Source: a virus (Duplodnaviria; Heunggongvirae; Uroviricota; Caudoviricetes). From it: a DNA stretch of 15,806 nt. Below the pieces are notes generated by a model that made no database searches, was not told the DNA's origin, and saw only the letters and a list, made by a program, of their open reading frames with translations. The position numbers and the translations under genes were made by a program. Each line of letters starts with the position of its first letter. Position 1 is the stretch's first letter. Of this stretch, positions 1-15,806 are shown in pieces. The stretch lies in the IMG/VR virus record IMGVR_UViG_643348547_000009. One strand, written 5' to 3'.

Positions 1-1461
1 ATGAAAAAATTACTGCGTCTTTTTTTCCCGCTCTCGCTGCGGGTACGTTTTCTGTTGGCAACGGCAGCGGTAGTACTGGTGCTTTCGCTTGCCTACGGAA
101 TGGTCGCGCTGATCGGTTATAGCGTCAGTTTCGATAAAACTACGTTTCGGCTGTTACGTGGCGAGAGCAATCTGTTCTATACCCTTGCGAAGTGGGAAAA
201 CAATAAGTTGCATGTCGAGTTACCCGAAAATATCGACAAGCAAAGCCCCACCATGACGCTAATTTATGATGAGAACGGGCAGCTTTTATGGGCGCAACGT
301 GACGTGCCCTGGCTGATGAAGATGATCCAGCCTGACTGGCTGAAATCGAATGGTTTTCATGAAATTGAAGCGGATGTTAACGATACCAGCCTCTTGCTGA
401 GTGGAGATCATTCGATACAGCAACAGTTGCAGGAAGTGCGGGAAGATGATGACGACGCGGAGATGACCCACTCGGTAGCGGTAAACGTCTACCCGGCAAC
501 ATCGCGGATGCCAAAGTTAACCATTGTGGTGGTGGATACCATTCCGGTGGAGCTAAAAAGTTCCTATATGGTCTGGAGCTGGTTTATCTATGTGCTCTCA
601 GCCAATCTGCTGTTAGTGATCCCGCTGCTGTGGGTCGCCGCCTGGTGGAGTTTACGCCCCATCGAAGCCCTGGCAAAAGAAGTCCGCGAACTGGAAGAAC
701 ATAACCGCGAATTGCTCAATCCTGCCACAACGCGAGAACTGACCAGTCTGGTACGAAACCTGAACCGACTGTTAAAAAGTGAACGCGAACGTTACGACAA
801 ATATCGTACGACGCTCACCGACCTGACCCATAGTCTGAAAACGCCACTGGCGGTGCTGCAAAGTACGCTGCGTTCTCTGCGTAGTGAGAAGATGAGCGTC
901 AGTGATGCTGAGCCGGTAATGCTGGAGCAAATCAGCCGCATTTCACAGCAAATTGGCTACTACCTGCATCGTGCCAGTATGCGCGGCGGGACATTGCTTA
1001 GCCGCGAGCTGCATCCGGTCGCCCCACTGTTGGACAATCTCACCTCGGCGCTGAACAAAGTGTATCAACGCAAAGGGGTCAATATCTCTCTCGATATTTC
1101 GCCAGAGATCAGCTTTGTTGGTGAGCAGAACGATTTTGTCGAGGTGATGGGCAATGTGCTGGATAATGCCTGTAAATATTGCCTCGAGTTTGTCGAAATT
1201 TCTGCAAGGCAAACCGACGAGCATCTCTATATTGTGGTCGAGGATGATGGCCCCGGTATTCCATTAAGCAAGCGAGAGGTCATTTTCGACCGTGGTCAAC
1301 GGGTTGATACTTTACGCCCTGGGCAAGGTGTGGGGCTGGCGGTAGCCCGCGAAATCACCGAGCAATATGAGGGTAAAATCGTCGCCGGAGAGAGCATGCT
1401 GGGCGGTGCGCGGATGGAGGTGATTTTTGGTCGCCAGCATTCTGCGCCGAAAGATGAATAA
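1..1461 (+). CDS. phoQ: Sensor histidine kinase PhoQ of the PhoP/PhoQ two-component system, complete 486 aa
   Basis: ATG at 1, TAA at 1459-1461. Two hydrophobic TM segments flank a periplasmic domain with the acidic cluster EDDDDAEM; H-box [11 protein letters not shown]; ATP-binding G-boxes DDGPGI and GQGVGLAV. Sequence matches E. coli PhoQ as I remember it. Confidence 0.97.
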
Positions 1462-1584
1462 ATATGTCCTTTTATCACTATATCAAGACAAACCATTGAT
1501 TTAATTAAATAATCTTCACTGCAAAAAGTGCCAAAAATCGCAAATTGACTACACCATTAACTACACCGTTCGGTGCACCGTATG

Positions 1585-1610
1585 AAACAACGTGGAACAA
1601 ATAGACACAA
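1585..1610. repeat. Three direct hexamer repeats (AAACAA, GAACAA, ACACAA) at exact 10 bp spacing; shares the 15-mer AACAACGTGGAACAA with 8861-8875
   Basis: Read directly: tgAAACAAcgtgGAACAAatagACACAAgaa. The 15-mer at 1586-1600 is identical to 8861-8875, and the flanks also align with indels. Confidence 0.6.
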
Positions 1611-1755
1611 GAAATATACAGGCGGATCATCTTTCCAGGGGGAAGCGCACCAATTCATGAGGGGCGTTAATGTCTATATGGGGATCTCCACCTACCTGGA
1701 TTTTTTTCCGGTTAAACGTTAATCAGGCTGGTGGGTTTTACCTGTTCTGTAGGAG

Positions 1756-5018: not shown

Positions 5019-5314
5019 CAGTACACCCCCACATCACGATAAACCGACCAGAGCATCCCTACAGCCAGCGGGATTTCTTTTGTGTCTCCATCCCCGACCG
5101 TGGCCCTGTATTCGTACAGTTGCGACACGTACATCATGCAGCCAATCTTTATGGCTGGCGTGAACTCCAGCCCGTCATCAAAGCGCCTGCCGATGTGTTT
5201 CTGGCACACCTCAAGCGCGGCGGCGATGTATCCGCTGATTAACTGGTCTTCCTCATTGCCATCAATGCGGCAATGGAGTTTCACTTCTTCCAGGGTGATT
5301 AATTCTGCTGTCAT
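5018..5314 (-). CDS. Head-tail connector protein, gp6-like (98 aa)
   Basis: N-terminal LEEVKLHCRIDGNEEDQLISGYIAAA pattern typical of gp6-like connector proteins; start and stop overlap neighbours by ATGA. Confidence 0.7.
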   Translation of the reverse strand: MTAELITLEEVKLHCRIDGNEEDQLISGYIAAALEVCQKHIGRRFDDGLEFTPAIKIGCMMYVSQLYEYRATVGDGDTKEIPLAVGMLWSVYRDVGVY

Positions 5315-5649
5315 CGTGGCGCACCTGTTTTACAAAGAATTTCCAGACGAGTCCTTTTACCGTCGGGAACGGGGGGGCCAACAATATCAAGCTCATTGCC
5401 GGAATAAGCCCCCGTGAGTACCCGTATCCGGCTGGATGCCGTAACATCCACACGAAAACGGATCCAGACTCTTACGGTTGCCTGTGCCGTTTCTGCACCT
5501 GCGGTCATGCGTTCCCGTCCGCTGATCCCTTTCACCTCCGCCCATACGGTGGCAACATCCTCCCATGTGCTTTTCATTGCACCGGAAGGGAGGCGGGAAA
5601 GTTTCGCGCTCATGATGACAATGCGATCCCTCATGCTCCCCGCTCTCAT
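5311..5649 (-). CDS. Phage head closure / head-tail joining protein (112 aa)
   Basis: Size, position between portal and connector, and resemblance to the head closure protein family; ATGA overlap with the portal stop. Confidence 0.68.
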   Translation of the reverse strand: MRAGSMRDRIVIMSAKLSRLPSGAMKSTWEDVATVWAEVKGISGRERMTAGAETAQATVRVWIRFRVDVTASSRIRVLTGAYSGNELDIVGPPVPDGKRTRLEILCKTGAPR

Positions 5650-6860
5650 GATTTGCCCTCTTTATCATCCTTTACTTCGATCTCCTGTTTCCAGGCCTGG
5701 CTGAACTCATCGCCACCATCACGCGGCGATAATCCCTCACGTTCGCGGGCTTCGTTCGGGCACATAACGCCGGACTTGATGCCGCGTTCATAGGTGGCAA
5801 AGCGTTCGCCAGGTGTGGCCCGTAACAGATCCGCGCTGTCAAACTCCACCTGATACCGGATACCAGGTACAGGCGAGGCCACCAGCAAAGCATTTTTTAT
5901 CTGCTGCTCAAAGTTCGCCAGCCACGGGCGCATCGTCATGGTGAGAAATGCGCGGCTTGCCTCGCTGAAATTGCTGTAGGTGCTGTTGCTGTATTCCTGC
6001 AGAAAAATCGGCGAGACGTTGAACATTCGGGCGATGTCTTCAATGGTGAAGCGACGGGAGGCCAGCCATTCAGCATCCTGGTTACTCATGCCAAGCTGCT
6101 GATAGCTCATACCCCCTTCAAGAATGGGCGTTTTTCCGGCGTTTCTGGCTCCTTTGTAGCGTTCCAGTGCGGCTAATGCCTGTTTGCCCTTCACGCCGTC
6201 CAGCCATTCGCCTGACGTGATAACCCCTGCTGCCATCATGCCATCACGCATCACGCTCGCGCCGTGGCGCTGTTGGGCCAGCCCAAGCCCCAGCGATTCG
6301 CGGCAGATGGTCACAGGTGAGCGCCCCATAAAGCCGTCATCCGTGGAGTAACGAAGGTGGAGAACCTCCCACGGTAAATAGTTGCGGGTGTTTCCGCTGT
6401 AAGCGTCAGTGATGCGGTAACGCCAGTTATGTTCCCCTGTCTGCTCAACATTCACCGACTGCGGCGGGTAAGGGTGCAAAGCCACTGGAAAACCATCACG
6501 CCCCCACTGAATCACCGCATAAGCATTACCGTTTAACAGGCAGTGGCGGACCATCATTCGCTTAAACTGATAGGGCGTCTGCCACGCGTTCGGGCGCTCG
6601 TTGAGGATATGATCGACCGGATGAGAATCAAGCCACTCGCGGGCCTCCTTCCCCTTCTCATTGCGTACCAGGTACAGGTAGCATGGCATAGTAGCCACCG
6701 CCTCAGAGATGACCGTGACGGCGTTCATGACGGCGGGGAGTGATTCCGCTGTCCCCGATGATACGTACTCACCCGCCCCCGTGTTCGATGTGCCAGCCAG
6801 CGCCATAAATTCATCCAGCGTCATGCTGCGATGCTCTTGTTTTCGTCTGAAAGGCCACAT
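5646..6860 (-). CDS. Phage portal protein, HK97 family (404 aa)
   Basis: About 400 aa protein adjacent to the prohead protease with an acidic C-terminal tail; GGGGG Shine-Dalgarno about 6 nt upstream of the ATG at 6860. Confidence 0.88.
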   Translation of the reverse strand: MWPFRRKQEHRSMTLDEFMALAGTSNTGAGEYVSSGTAESLPAVMNAVTVISEAVATMPCYLYLVRNEKGKEAREWLDSHPVDHILNERPNAWQTPYQFKRMMVRHCLLNGNAYAVIQWGRDGFPVALHPYPPQSVNVEQTGEHNWRYRITDAYSGNTRNYLPWEVLHLRYSTDDGFMGRSPVTICRESLGLGLAQQRHGASVMRDGMMAAGVITSGEWLDGVKGKQALAALERYKGARNAGKTPILEGGMSYQQLGMSNQDAEWLASRRFTIEDIARMFNVSPIFLQEYSNSTYSNFSEASRAFLTMTMRPWLANFEQQIKNALLVASPVPGIRYQVEFDSADLLRATPGERFATYERGIKSGVMCPNEAREREGLSPRDGGDEFSQAWKQEIEVKDDKEGKS

Positions 6861-6861
6861 A

Positions 6862-7437
6862 TCACACCCCCGCTAAATCCGCCCACCAGCGGCGATTATC
6901 CGCGCGTGGCATTTTTTCGGGGTGCTGCTCATACAGGGAACGGCGGGCCAGATCCACGCCGGAATCAGGGTAAGCCGGTACGGATGTAACGGTAATTTCG
7001 TACAGTTCCGCCACCAGCACGGTGCGCACGCATGGATCTGTTGTGGTATCCCATACATCCTTACGGGAACGAAAGCCAAAGCTCATCCCCGAGATATCAC
7101 CACGCTTAACCAGTTCGATAACGTCCCGCCCTGTACTGGTATCCGGTGGGGTCAGTTCAAAGCGTAACCCTGTTTCATCCTCTTCCAGTTTCAGCGTACC
7201 GGAACGGGTACGCCCCAGTAACATGCTGTGGTCGTGCTCATACAGGCCGCGAACGTCATTACCCGCCGCCAGCCACTCACTGAACGCCCCCCGCTGGAAT
7301 TTTTCGTAAAACTCACCCCATAGCAGATCAGAAAGGTTATTCCAGCGAACAACGTAACCCGTCAGCGTACTGGCTCCGCTGGTGGTGATTTCTGATGACC
7401 GGATTTCCATGCTCTTTTTCATATTTTTTTCACCCAT
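6862..7437 (-). CDS. HK97-family prohead protease (191 aa; start may instead be the ATG at 7422)
   Basis: Conserved protease-family segments LYEHDHS, GRTRSGTL and GMSFGF. The ATG at 7437 has no good Shine-Dalgarno; the in-frame ATG at 7422 has GGTGA about 9 nt upstream. Confidence 0.85.
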   Translation of the reverse strand: MGEKNMKKSMEIRSSEITTSGASTLTGYVVRWNNLSDLLWGEFYEKFQRGAFSEWLAAGNDVRGLYEHDHSMLLGRTRSGTLKLEEDETGLRFELTPPDTSTGRDVIELVKRGDISGMSFGFRSRKDVWDTTTDPCVRTVLVAELYEITVTSVPAYPDSGVDLARRSLYEQHPEKMPRADNRRWWADLAGV

Positions 7438-7445
7438 AAAACACC

Positions 7446-7468
7446 AAAGGGGCTTTTTAGCCCCTTTT
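7446..7468 (-). terminator. Stem-loop plus U-rich tract between the capsid and protease genes (candidate attenuator)
   Basis: Inverted repeat AAAGGGGC / GCCCCTTT (8 bp stem, 6 nt loop) 4 nt after the capsid stop; on the minus strand it is followed by GGTGTTTT and then the protease ATG. Confidence 0.4.
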
Positions 7469-7472
7469 TCTG

Positions 7473-8645
7473 TTAACCGCCGTTTTTCATCTCGAGGACT
7501 TTTATCGCGCGGGAGTCAACAACCCCGCCGCCGATGTATTTGTCCGTGTGTACCTTGTAGAAACCCGGCTCTGTAATGTTGTCCGGTCGGGTACGAATAC
7601 CCGTTTCATGGTCAACGATGAAATAACCGCGCTTAAAGTCACCGACAGCCAGCGGCGTTTTGCCTTTGCCGATGTCCGGCATACTTTCCAGGTAATAAAC
7701 AGGACGGCCCAGCAATGTGTCAGGTGCGCCCTCTTTGAGGCTGTCACGCCATACGTAATCACCGCTCTGGTTTTTCAGCTTCTGCAATGCTGCCGCTGTG
7801 CTCGAGTTCATCACCCATACGGCGTTCTTACGGTATTTCGCTTTCAGCTTGTAGAGGATGTCGATCAGTTCGTCCGCTGTAATGGCGGCTTCGGCTGCTG
7901 CTACCATTTTTTCAATGGTGCCAAAGGCGCGGGTTTTGTCGTTGGTTAGATCTCGGTTGTAACTCAGGAAACCTTTCGGCTTGCCAGTACCATTACCATT
8001 TACAAAATCATCTTCTTCGGTCGTGGCGAACGTATCGGCGATTTCAGACGATAACCAGCCCAGTACGTCCACCTCTGAAAAATCCAGAATTTCCTGTGTG
8101 GTTTTCGGGTAGGCATAGATCGGGTTAAGTTTGATGCTTACGCGCTCAACTTTCGGGGTGTTGGTTTCGTTACGCTTGCTGCCCTCGGTTCCATAATTTA
8201 CAGCCGCGCCACCTGTGGAAACCAGTTTCTGATATTCGTTTGATTTCGCCGTTTTCACGGTCGCAATCATTCGCATGACGCTTTCATCACTCAGTAACCG
8301 CATGACCTCGCGATCAAGCTCAGGGATAACGGTATAGCCACCGTCCTTGCCGCTGTTGCTAGTGGTGGATAATGAGCGAACGTCACCCGTTACGATGTAA
8401 TTGCGAAGTTCTGCGGGGTCAGTGGTCTGGCTGGCTTTACCTGGCTTGCTGCGCTCTTCGTCTGCAATGGCTTCAAGGCGGGAAATGTCTTTATCGAGGG
8501 ATTCAGCTTTAGCGCGTAATTCGTCAAATTTTGCGCCCTCAGCATCGTTAAGACTGCGGTTTTCTTTTTCCGCGTTCTCCAGCATGTCGCGCATCTGATT
8601 TTTAATGGCGGTTTTCTGCTGGCGTAATTCGATTATTCTCGGCAT
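7473..8645 (-). CDS. Major capsid protein, HK97 fold (390 aa)
   Basis: N-terminal coiled-coil scaffold-like delta domain (ELRQQKTAIKNQMRDMLENAEKE...), about 390 aa, adjacent to the prohead protease; ATG at 8645. Confidence 0.92.
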   Translation of the reverse strand: MPRIIELRQQKTAIKNQMRDMLENAEKENRSLNDAEGAKFDELRAKAESLDKDISRLEAIADEERSKPGKASQTTDPAELRNYIVTGDVRSLSTTSNSGKDGGYTVIPELDREVMRLLSDESVMRMIATVKTAKSNEYQKLVSTGGAAVNYGTEGSKRNETNTPKVERVSIKLNPIYAYPKTTQEILDFSEVDVLGWLSSEIADTFATTEEDDFVNGNGTGKPKGFLSYNRDLTNDKTRAFGTIEKMVAAAEAAITADELIDILYKLKAKYRKNAVWVMNSSTAAALQKLKNQSGDYVWRDSLKEGAPDTLLGRPVYYLESMPDIGKGKTPLAVGDFKRGYFIVDHETGIRTRPDNITEPGFYKVHTDKYIGGGVVDSRAIKVLEMKNGG

Positions 8646-8859: not shown

Positions 8860-8885
8860 GAACAACGTGGAACAACCACGAACAA
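8860..8885. repeat. Three GAACAA direct repeats at exact 10 bp spacing in the packaging-operon upstream region
   Basis: Read directly: cGAACAAcgtgGAACAAccacGAACAAataa; shares a 15-mer with 1586-1600. Confidence 0.6.
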
Positions 8886-8904: not shown

Positions 8905-8925
8905 AAAAAGCCGGATTGCTCCGGC
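8905..8925 (-). terminator. Candidate rho-independent terminator after the perC-like gene
   Basis: On the minus strand, GCCGGA-gcaa-TCCGGC (6 bp stem, tetraloop) followed by TTTTTGTCATGTTTTG, starting 7 nt after the perC-like stop. Confidence 0.5.
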
Positions 8926-8932
8926 TGTGTGA

Positions 8933-9879: not shown

Positions 9880-9928
9880 TTTTATTTTTACCCCCTCGTT
9901 TAAAAAGTTTTGAGTTGTGCCTCCCCTT

Positions 9929-10154
9929 GTCTACCTTATCTACCTTACTGGCTCTCATGCCAGTAATGGCGCGGCTTTCAGCGGGGTAGAGTGCTTTTAT
10001 CCACTATCTACCCCGTATCTACCTCCCTGTCTGATTCAGGTAAAATCAGGTAGAGAGGGTAGATAGTAGGTAGACAGTGAAAAAAGGCTGTCTACCTAAG
10101 TTAATATACTGAATTAAATGTATTTTTCTTTACTCAGGTAGACAGGGTAGACAG
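9929..10154. repeat. Candidate replication origin: about 11 iterons with core GGTAGA / TCTACC in both orientations, plus an AT-rich stretch
   Basis: TCTACC at 9931, 9940, 10007, 10018 and 10091; GGTAGA at 9985, 10049, 10058, 10069, 10138 and 10147. AT-rich segment at about 10100-10130. Located immediately 3' of the primase gene. Confidence 0.65.
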
Positions 10155-10167
10155 CCATTGCAAAAAA

Positions 10168-14202: not shown

Positions 14203-14361
14203 TATTGCCCCCTTTCGTTTCTTAAAGAGTTATTTCGTGTTCTATTGCGTTGGGATGTGTCTGATTGTGTCAGGATGATTCAGAGTTGGCAAATGTTGAG
14301 GCCGTATGGTTTACAGAAAGAGGAATAATCAGGATAAAATCATTTAATTTCATGTTAATAC

Positions 14362-14576: not shown

Positions 14577-15806
14577 TTATTTTCTTCTGGCTACTGGTAG
14601 CGTGGTTACGTTTTCATGTGTTCCCGCCAGTATCCCTAACCGCTCCGTCCACATATCCAGCGCATTGCGTTTAGCATCCAGATAACGGGAATGATTATAA
14701 ACTCGCTGCATTCCTGGCATCTGGTGGCCTGTAAGCTGCTCCACGACGTGAGGATCCACGCCTAAATCGCTCAGCATCGTTGTAAAGGTGCGCCGGATGT
14801 CATGTAGTGACCAGTGAGGGTGATTTAGCCTCCTGTGCGCTAATCTGCCGTACTGCGACACGCTTGTTTCCTGTTTCACTTCCCCCAGCAATAAGCCCGT
14901 GTGCCTGTTCTGCTCCACCAGCTGCGTGACGAACGGCAGTATTGCTTCCGGTATGGGCCGGAATATTGCCACCTTCGTTTTGCTGTGTTCTTTCGGCACG
15001 GTCCAGAGCATTTCGGTAAAATCCCACTCGCTGATCTCCGATAACCTCAGTTCTACCGTCCGGCATCCGAACACAATCAGGAGGCGGATTAACGCGATGT
15101 AGTAGGGGGAGAATATTTTTTTGTCCAGTGCCTGCAATAATTCGCCCAGTTCTTTGGTGCTTAAGACACGCTCGCTTATATCCGGTTTTTTCCCAACGTC
15201 CGCCACACTCATATCATCAAGAACGTTGCTGATTGCATAGCGCCGCCTCCGGCAGAACTTAAGCGCCTGTTTGCACGTCTGTAGCAAGAATCCGGCAGTA
15301 ACAGGCGTTCGCTTTGCCACCTGGTCAAAACAGGCCAGCCAGTGCCGTAGCTCGCATTTATCCAGCGGCATAGCACCAATGTGCTGTATTACGTGATTAT
15401 TAAGGCGCTTTTTCAGGGCGGCATAATCCACGCGGTTTTCCTTTGCGTACGACTCAAGCCAGTAGGTGAGCGCATCGCCAACCGTTACCGGCTTTAACGC
15501 TTCCTGTACGGTGTAATTAAGCTCATGACGTGGATTTTTCCCCTCTGCCAGCCATGCGCGACACTGGGCGGCTTTTTCCCTGGCTGATTTCAGGCTCAGA
15601 TCAGGATAATTTCCCAGCTTAATGCGTTCCGGTGGTGCCCCCCTTCCCGTTCCGGCCCTGTAAGTGAAATACCAGGTTAAAAGGCCACTGGTTGAATGCC
15701 TGACGCTCAGGTTTCCACCGTCATTAAGAAAGGCTGTTTTTTGGGCGGGTGTGCCGTTGATTTTCCTCAGCTGTGTATCGCTCAGTTTGTTAAGTGCTCT
15801 GCTCAT
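14577..15806 (-). CDS. int: Site-specific tyrosine integrase, P4-type (409 aa)
   Basis: ATG is formed by the last three bases of the window. N-terminal arm-binding-like domain, and a C-terminal catalytic region (...HDIRRTFTT...YNHSRYLD) consistent with the tyrosine recombinase R/H/R/Y arrangement. Confidence 0.93.
   Translation of the reverse strand: MSRALNKLSDTQLRKINGTPAQKTAFLNDGGNLSVRHSTSGLLTWYFTYRAGTGRGAPPERIKLGNYPDLSLKSAREKAAQCRAWLAEGKNPRHELNYTVQEALKPVTVGDALTYWLESYAKENRVDYAALKKRLNNHVIQHIGAMPLDKCELRHWLACFDQVAKRTPVTAGFLLQTCKQALKFCRRRRYAISNVLDDMSVADVGKKPDISERVLSTKELGELLQALDKKIFSPYYIALIRLLIVFGCRTVELRLSEISEWDFTEMLWTVPKEHSKTKVAIFRPIPEAILPFVTQLVEQNRHTGLLLGEVKQETSVSQYGRLAHRRLNHPHWSLHDIRRTFTTMLSDLGVDPHVVEQLTGHQMPGMQRVYNHSRYLDAKRNALDMWTERLGILAGTHENVTTLPVARRK

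Follow-up and report, generated by a model that had tools for sequence, protein, structure and literature searches.

Repeats beside phoQ as a predicted integrase-distal attachment arm of a capsid-forming phage-inducible chromosomal island in Escherichia coli

Gene content and boundary of the island

The DNA considered here is a stretch of 15,806 nucleotides from the IMG/VR record IMGVR_UViG_643348547_000009 (the window), which opens with phoQ and closes on the start codon of a tyrosine integrase gene (int). What follows phoQ is, judged by its gene content, a capsid-forming phage-inducible chromosomal island (cf-PICI; PICI for islands of this class at large) of about 14.4 kb that lies between phoQ and roxA and carries an int/alpA/attachment (att) module of the EcCICFT073 type. 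A segment dense in short repeats, at 1540-1620, is probably the int-distal att arm of this island, in which binding sites for the arm-binding domain of the integrase (Int) are joined to an array for an accessory factor, most likely the small protein AlpA (Table 1).

From phoQ towards int, the island encodes TerL, a P27-type TerS, an HNH protein, head-tail connector and head-completion proteins, a portal, a prohead protease and an HK97-type capsid protein, followed by PerC, SSB, a D5-type primase, Icd-like genes and AlpA. These identities come from Pfam and from the annotation of L001, a 97-98% identical element in strain AR_0013, and by the same two sources the island contains no tail or lysis genes. 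With its int-alpA-primase backbone, its own capsid and packaging set and a length of 14.4-14.5 kb, within the range of 10-15 kb, the island has the gene set described for cf-PICIs (10.1101/2022.09.08.507074).

The boundary with the host can be placed to the base. Of the 5,364 E. coli genomes with a match to the phoQ end, most match only to base 1469 or less, and an island-free strain reads phoQ-TAAATATGTCC/ATACTTCACG-roxA (...GAATAAATATGTCC/ATACTTCACG..., running on into roxA; the slash marks the insertion point). Because host homology stops at 1469 and the empty site has this sequence, the island junction is at 1469/1470. The att identity block that ends there, AAATATGTCC, has a second copy where the island meets roxA, 172 bp past the int ATG, in the related elements L001, L013 and L014, and is shortened to TATGTCC in L011; the supplement of PMC10111431 gives it as GGACATATTT for phoQ.EcCICFT073. 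On the int-side arm the predicted overlap is preceded by TGATAAAA, and the reconstructed attP, read by eye, is TGATAAAA-TATGTCC-TTTTATCA, in which two 8-mers in perfect inverted repeat enclose the 7 bp of the overlap. The attP and attB sites share a short identity with an overlap of about 7 bp, flanked by inverted sites of predicted core type.

The repeat-dense segment starts about 80 bp inside the island and is island DNA, not host DNA. A preliminary description of the window had offered the segment as a candidate island junction or att arm region; it is an arm, and the junction lies 70-80 bp to its left. The same description had held that the left junction could not be fixed from this sequence since the matching att copy lies beyond the integrase. 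The copy does lie there, but the comparison with an island-free phoQ downstream region, which the description had proposed as a check, fixes the insertion point and shows that the segment is not ordinary host intergenic DNA. With int drawn on the left, the junction beside 1540-1620 is attR.

A match to the consensus of integration host factor (IHF) lies between the predicted core site and the repeats. The window contains two matches to WATCAANNNNTTR including this one, with 0.60 expected, a count of consensus matches only. In the alignment of distal arms described below, the position is kept in eight relatives, four exactly and four with one mismatch, while the flanks diverge.

Repeats of the distal arm

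The arm contains two copies of the 8-mer ACTACACC, at 1548-1555 and 1560-1567, just where the preliminary description had put them, and no further copy occurs in the window. Two copies compare with 0.29 expected, and 8 of 200 shuffles of the window reach two. The repeat unit is in fact 12 nt long (ATTGACTACACC and ATTAACTACACC, at 1544-1567), and the tandem 12-bp site takes the form A(T/G)T(A/G)ACTACACC. Further along, three units of six bases follow one another at an exact 10-bp phase, and no such three-unit array appeared in 200 shuffles. These had been noticed before as a triple (A/G)AACAA repeat; the phasing bears this out and exceeds chance, although the third unit, ACACAA, departs from the consensus. 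A search of Rfam gave no match within the segment.

The third repeat of the earlier account, the 10-bp palindrome CGGTGCACCG, is correctly placed at 1571-1580. Perfect 10-bp palindromes number 10 in the window and 14.8 in shuffled sequence, so this one is at chance level, unlike the ACTACACC pair and the phased array. Nor is it conserved: relatives have CGGTGCACTG or CGGCGCACTG in its place on distal arms and CGTTGCACAA on the int-side arm, and L015 has only 5 nt, without a palindrome, in place of the 17-nt spacer. As a functional element it was rejected on both grounds, and 1568-1584 is probably only a spacer.

A second copy of the arm and its geometry in relatives

In L001 (40.9 kb), the 12-mer ATTRACTACACC occurs four times on one strand, a number reached in none of 100 shuffles. 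Two of them stand in tandem at the phoQ end, and the other two, again in tandem, are found 26 bp upstream of the int ATG. The two arms of L001 align over about 70 bp in the same orientation, each with the doublet, a spacer and then phased RAACAA units. In the window element the int-side arm lies just past the window end, and its sequence was read from the close relatives L001 and L008. This repetition at the int end, together with the domain PF13356 in the integrase, upholds the earlier suggestion that repeats of this density mark arm-type sites of a recombinase, or binding sites of accessory factors, at the end of an island.

Eleven elements at five target sites and with two kinds of packaging module were compared: the window, L001, L003, L004, L005, L006 and L011-L015. 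At phoQ/roxA, L001 is a cf-PICI, and L011, L013 and L014 (EcCICFT073) are classical PICIs; at tqsA, L003 and L004 are cf-PICIs and L006 is classical. L012 is a cf-PICI at yifB, L005 a classical PICI inside an ISEc45 transposase gene, and L015 a classical PICI at clpS/cspD whose integrase is only 77.7% identical. All eleven have exactly two plus two co-oriented copies of ACTACACC. The doublets stand on the arms only, distinct from the core and inside the element on both sides of the crossover.

Their distances are also kept. In nine relatives, the distal doublet starts 80-83.5 bp and the int-side doublet ends 130.5-133.5 bp from the centre of the identity block, and in the window a direct reading puts the distal doublet about 82 bp from the crossover. 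The exception is the ISEc45 element L005, with 74.5 and 122.5 bp from the longest shared block; it fits, at 81.5 and 130.5 bp, only if the crossover is the 4-bp identity TCAC, which was assigned by eye. When nine distal arms (the window and eight relatives) are aligned, there is hardly any variation from the first ACTACACC through to CACAAG, and both flanks diverge. This distal arm was found in 885 of 5,426 complete E. coli genomes.

Two further loci bear on where such elements integrate. L005, in E. coli SCU-112, lies in a transposase gene of the IS110 family (ends at 17968-17985 and 28805-28820) and may represent integration at a secondary site. At smrA/abgR in E. coli Z226-6 (L007, 17815-18090), the first 55 codons of an integrase gene of this type and a complete int-side arm, including the ACTACACC doublet and the arrays, stand without an island; the remnant looks like what is left of a decayed element that had used yet another integration site. 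A scan of genome contigs by integrase alignment gave three loci only: in one, a Shigella element, Int is identical, and the integrases of the other two are unrelated (23-26% identity). The scan therefore adds no phylogenetic breadth.

The integrase and the doubled motif

The integrase has the N-terminal domain PF13356 (residues 8-95, E=5e-18) and the catalytic domain PF00589 (E=2e-16). A match to PF22022 is weak (E=1.6e-4), its 22.3 bits falling under the 27-bit cut-off. Int therefore possesses a separate N-terminal domain of the kind that binds arm DNA, and the four ACTACACC half-sites, confined to the arms, match the number of protomers in an integrase tetramer.

A further link between doublet and integrase comes from the four nucleotides that precede ACTACACC. 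Two types of prefix exist, each on both arms: ATTA, accompanied by ATTG, and AGTG, accompanied by AATG or AGTA. The ATTA prefix always occurs with an Int N-domain reading ...GGNLSVRHST(S/N)GLLTW..., and the AGTG prefix always with one reading ...GGNLSVKYLTSGKLTW... (...SVKYLTSGKL...). This pairing is independent of target site, of packaging type and of overall Int divergence, and the AlpA variants (T22 or S22 and a few others) do not follow the split. The ACTACACC doublets are accordingly predicted, from sequence covariation and copy number, to be sites for the N-terminal arm-binding domain of Int.

Phased arrays and AlpA

Phased RAACAA units occur outside the arms as well. With one mismatch allowed, L001 contains 11 matches to RAACAAN4RAACAA against 1.03 expected. 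A second three-unit array in the window sits 215 bp upstream of the capsid ATG and recurs in all cf-PICIs examined (the window, L001, L003, L004 and L012). A third, of five units, lies right after the int stop codon, upstream of alpA. The distal-arm and alpA-upstream arrays are present in every EcCICFT073-type element examined, and the former is invariant or nearly so in all left arms aligned. The int-side arm has two exact RAACAA units with degenerate neighbours.

In EcCICFT073, AlpA was reported to activate PalpA but not Pint, and its over-expression in the absence of phage led to int-dependent excision (PMC6092414). Because the arrays recur upstream of alpA and of the capsid operon, and because of these published effects of AlpA on activation and excision, AlpA is the favoured binder of the arrays. 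We infer that the RAACAA arrays are AlpA sites and that AlpA acts as a recombination directionality factor (RDF) as well as an activator. The broader proposal, in which the arrays would be the operator of the 62-aa AlpA and one helper-induced protein would be RDF, activator of its own gene and switch of the late (capsid) operon, is put forward tentatively and with a little less than even confidence.

A degenerate series with the same 10-bp phase, ACACAA-TCAG-ACACAT-CCCA-ACGCAA-TAGA-ACACGA, stands just upstream of the alpA start (14236-14275, minus strand); it resembles RAACAA and overlaps a weak promoter-like match, TTGCCA/CACAAT. The binding element of Pseudomonas AlpA was considered as a comparison and set aside, since that protein is larger (contacts to residue 142), is an antiterminator and uses a single GGGACG site.

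Proposed mechanism

The model for the arm can be stated as follows. The IHF-consensus site at 1489-1501 would bend the DNA, the tandem site at 1544-1567 would be occupied by the N-terminal arm-binding domains of two integrase protomers, and beyond these a small accessory protein, most likely AlpA, would line one face of the helix at 1585-1610. The two matching doublets would offer four arm half-sites to an integrase tetramer. On excision, a helper phage would switch AlpA on, and AlpA on the arrays of both arms would shape attL and attR, tipping the balance towards the excisive complex. Through the further arrays, which stand upstream of alpA and, in cf-PICIs, also ahead of the capsid operon, excision would be linked with transcription. 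What is read directly is where the motifs lie and how they repeat, their conservation and geometry, the domains of the proteins and the covariation; which protein binds which site, and the direction of the effect, are proposals built on these readings.

Comparison with known systems

The closest counterpart of this arrangement is the attP of the HE-PICIs described by Tommasini, Mageeney and Williams (2023; PMC10111431), in which tgTGTATTGCantgTGTATTGCa occurs twice in the same orientation, once 81±2 bp upstream of the attP centre and once 132±2 bp downstream. Both systems have a doubled 8-mer with a 12-bp period, two co-oriented doublets at spacings of about 81 and 132 bp, an int-side doublet just upstream of the int ATG, and homologous integrases with the same N-terminal domain. 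They differ in the 8-mer itself: here it is ACTACACC, or GGTGTAGT in the direction of int, where the HE-PICIs have TGTATTGC, although GGTGTAGT and TGTATTGC share a TGTA.T core. The targets differ too, being prophage late genes in HE-PICIs and chromosomal sites here (phoQ/roxA, tqsA, yifB and clpS/cspD), and the phased RAACAA arrays were not found in three TGTATTGC-type elements. The window element thus falls outside the HE-PICI clade with its TGTATTGC core and its prophage late-gene targets, and the doubled TGTATTGC motif was itself reported as not found in other PICIs (PMC10111431).

In viral contigs with TGTATTGC doublets about 10-11 kb apart, the int-side doublet likewise lies just upstream of the integrase, which starts M..ENKLSD... 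and is 40-46% identical to the window Int. One contig, L068 (IMG/VR 3300020043_006768), carries two TGTATTGC doublets on one strand only 258 bp apart (7252-7529), a spacing expected of the excised or packaged attP form and not of an integrated element; a search of the 250 bp downstream gave no integrase open reading frame.

EcCICFT073, the prototype Gram-negative PICI, shares the phoQ/roxA site and the identity block with the window element and has related int and alpA genes (alpA 88% identical at the DNA level); CFT073 carries the same two-plus-two layout of ACTACACC. The att excerpts given for phoQ.EcCICFT073 in the supplement of PMC10111431 end before the doublets. EcCIEDL933, the prototype cf-PICI, has the same type of packaging module (capsid, protease, portal, connectors, HNH, TerS and TerL). 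EcCIEDL933 has been reported to depend on a helper phage for its induction and to be transferred in capsids that the PICI makes itself and that carry phage tails (10.1101/2022.09.08.507074); the window element is assigned to the same class by its gene content. Arm sites for the EcCICFT073-type clade are not mentioned in the available parts of the EcCICFT073 and cf-PICI papers (PMC6092414, 10.1101/2022.09.08.507074) or of PMC10111431 and its att supplements. A search of one full-text library with the doubled-motif strings found no paper.

In a broader setting, the attP of phage lambda has Int arm-type sites P1, P2 and P'1-3, Xis sites X1, X1.5 and X2, and IHF sites. Lambda and, by prediction, the island have in common a heterobivalent tyrosine integrase, arm sites that are distinct from the core and lie on both sides of a 7-bp overlap, and close direct repeats for a small RDF beside an Int arm site; where lambda has an IHF site between core and arm sites, the island has a match to the IHF consensus. 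The two differ in that lambda has five sites in mixed arrangement, where the island has four half-sites in two identical co-oriented tandem doublets; in that the lambda RDF array is on one arm and the putative array here on both; and in the family of the arm-binding domain, which is PF13356 here and another in lambda. P2 Cox and P4 Vis are small multifunctional RDFs and regulators, with direct repeats about one helical turn apart in att arms and promoters. As in those phages, one small protein would here control both the direction of recombination and transcription; the family differs (AlpA, PF05930), and the arrays here are candidate sites.

A third system is KplE1 (CPS-53), with its IntS integrase and TorI RDF, in which the att site abuts int, so that the sequence upstream of int holds both the arm sites and those of the RDF (Panis et al., 2010, PMC2951348). 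The island resembles it in that int abuts att, the RDF gene is transcribed apart from int, and excision hinges on expression of the RDF (PMC2951348). It differs in the sequences and numbers of the sites, and in that no int promoter was detected in the arm here; AlpA left Pint unchanged in EcCICFT073 (PMC6092414). In terms of likeness of arrangement, lambda attP, KplE1 IntS/TorI and P2 Cox/P4 Vis are functional analogues of the island module.

Alternative explanations

The reading preferred above, Int arm sites joined to an accessory-factor array, has to be weighed against four others. The one with most to recommend it, though still clearly improbable, has the doublet bound by AlpA or by another island or host protein, with the Int arm sites in another place, such as the RAACAA units. 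Proteins of the AlpA family often serve as excisionases and bind att arms, and the describers of the equivalent TGTATTGC doublet left its binder open among Int arm domains, AlpA or another protein (PMC10111431). This idea fits poorly with the restriction of ACTACACC to the two arms in a number that equals an Int tetramer, with a prefix that tracks the Int N-domain and not the AlpA variants, and with the presence of RAACAA arrays at regulatory positions outside att, which suits a transcription factor or RDF better than an integrase. Much less probable is that the distal copy is a non-functional relic of the int upstream region and that only the int-side copy works, as an operator or promoter element of int. 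Its position 26 bp upstream of the int ATG, like that of the KplE1 att arm sites that overlap the int promoter, speaks for this. Against it, no other block of the divergent arm is as well conserved as the distal copy, the distance of 80-83.5 bp between this copy and the crossover is kept at four clearly mapped target sites (and at the ISEc45 site only with a hand-assigned core), the two-copy layout persists with integrases only 40-46% identical, and no promoter-like site was found in the int-side arm.

A role in packaging, with the repeats serving as a cos or pac signal or as sites for the small terminase subunit, is less likely again. The TerL gene does end about 700 bp from the segment, with its 3' end towards it, and terminase-binding sites are often short phased repeats. 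The module is nonetheless identical in cf-PICIs with their own TerS, TerL and HNH and in classical PICIs with other packaging genes, and it is duplicated at the int end; because it travels with the int type and not with the packaging type, a packaging signal is disfavoured. Least of all can the segment be a chance cluster in ordinary host sequence downstream of phoQ. The palindrome is at chance level, and the ACTACACC pair of the window taken by itself is only moderately unlikely, as noted above; yet the segment is absent from island-free genomes, its repeats are found again at the int end and in every relative, and the phased array was never matched in the shuffles. The island-free genomes and the four-copy pattern of L001 refute this reading.

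Some observations weigh against the assignments to Int and AlpA themselves. The covariation of prefix and N-domain may in part be linkage, since the int-side arm abuts the 5' end of int and, once the element is circular, about 230 bp separate one arm from the other. At the ISEc45 insertion, the junction identity is only about 4 bp. No sigma-70-like promoter was found in the int-side arm, and elsewhere in the scanned sequence only weak 9/12 matches occurred. As for AlpA, whose assignment to the arrays is circumstantial, the capsid-operon array is present in cf-PICIs only, classical PICIs being without it, and it is oriented opposite to the operon. AlpA is nearly invariant in the set, and a general search for phased 5-mers gave no array on the arms of three TGTATTGC-type elements. 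Autoregulation of int through the arm sites had been entertained separately and was dropped as a supported claim, because the int-side arm has no sigma-70-like site.

Other features of the island

Table 1. Coordinates of the att arm and of associated features in the window
Feature	Position	Strand	Remark
phoQ	1-1461		window start
att identity block AAATATGTCC	1460-1469	.	includes the last two bases of the phoQ stop codon
Predicted 7-bp overlap (crossover) TATGTCC	1463-1469		
Predicted core-type integrase site C' TTTTATCA	1470-1477	+	perfect inverted repeat of TGATAAAA; putative function
IHF-consensus match AATCAATGGTTTG and adjoining A/T-rich tract	1489-1501	-	between core and arm sites
Doubled arm-type site ATTG-ACTACACC / ATTA-ACTACACC, 12-bp period	1544-1567	+	proposed binding sites for two integrase N-terminal domains
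17-nt spacer including palindrome CGGTGCACCG	1568-1584	.	palindrome at chance level, unconserved
Three 10-bp-phased units: AAACAA (1585-1590), GAACAA (1595-1600), ACACAA (1605-1610)	1585-1610	+	proposed accessory factor/RDF sites
Second three-unit GAACAA array	8860-8885	+	between perC terminator-like hairpin (8909-8926) and capsid start (8645)
alpA, 62 aa, PF05930	14014-14202	-	candidate RDF/activator for phased arrays
Five-unit phased array ATACAA, CAACAA, CAACAA, GAACAA, GAACAA	14485-14530	-	right after int stop, upstream of alpA
Tyrosine integrase, 409 aa, N-terminal Arm-DNA-bind_3	14577-15806	-	ATG is the last codon of the window

The make-up of the island is mosaic: the integration module is of the EcCICFT073 type, and the packaging module is that of a cf-PICI. 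The window is not among the complete E. coli genomes searched, the closest of which matches the island at 97.4% identity across 90% of its length. Most of the island is 98-99% identical to L001, and the portal-protease-capsid stretch (within window 5300-8400) only about 92-93%; L008 compared with window 5683-7643 gives about 92.7%.

Several features lie outside the att module. In a variable zone of the island, the minus strand at 12660-12747 matches the C4 antisense RNA family of Rfam (RF01695, 72.7 bits, E=7.5e-13), an immunity RNA of the P1/P7 type. Downstream of the primase gene, at 9925-10160 (minus strand), dense (G)TCTACC / GGTAGA(C) iterons in both orientations surround an A/T-rich stretch and include a 10-bp-phased TCTACC triplet (10049-10074); this region is probably the replication origin of the island, as PICIs carry one downstream of pri. 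Between the att arm and a conserved open reading frame of 93 aa (1993-2274), the sequence GTGGTCATTATGACCAT occurs in two perfect copies 95 bp apart (1755-1771 and 1850-1866), each holding the 13-bp palindrome GGTCATTATGACC. The palindrome is sporadic, with two copies in L001, one each in L004 and L013 and none in the other relatives. A link of these palindromes (at 1757 and 1852) to island type was rejected, as they follow neither the capsid-forming nor the classical type.

Implications for the PICI family

The kind of feature described here, an arm-site module of a PICI integrase, is known, and the motif ACTACACC has not been described before. The two-plus-two layout with doublets at 81 and 132 bp from the crossover, reported for one clade of PICI integrases, extends to the EcCICFT073-type clade with another 8-mer. 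For a satellite module that is widespread in E. coli and Shigella, the boundaries and the predicted recombination apparatus are now fixed. The Int residues RHS..L and KYL..K, which covary with the ATTA and AGTG prefixes respectively, are candidate specificity determinants for retargeting or typing, and the shared RAACAA arrays provide a testable candidate binding site for AlpA. If the arrays do prove to be the AlpA operator, the induction circuit of Gram-negative PICIs would have a defined DNA target.

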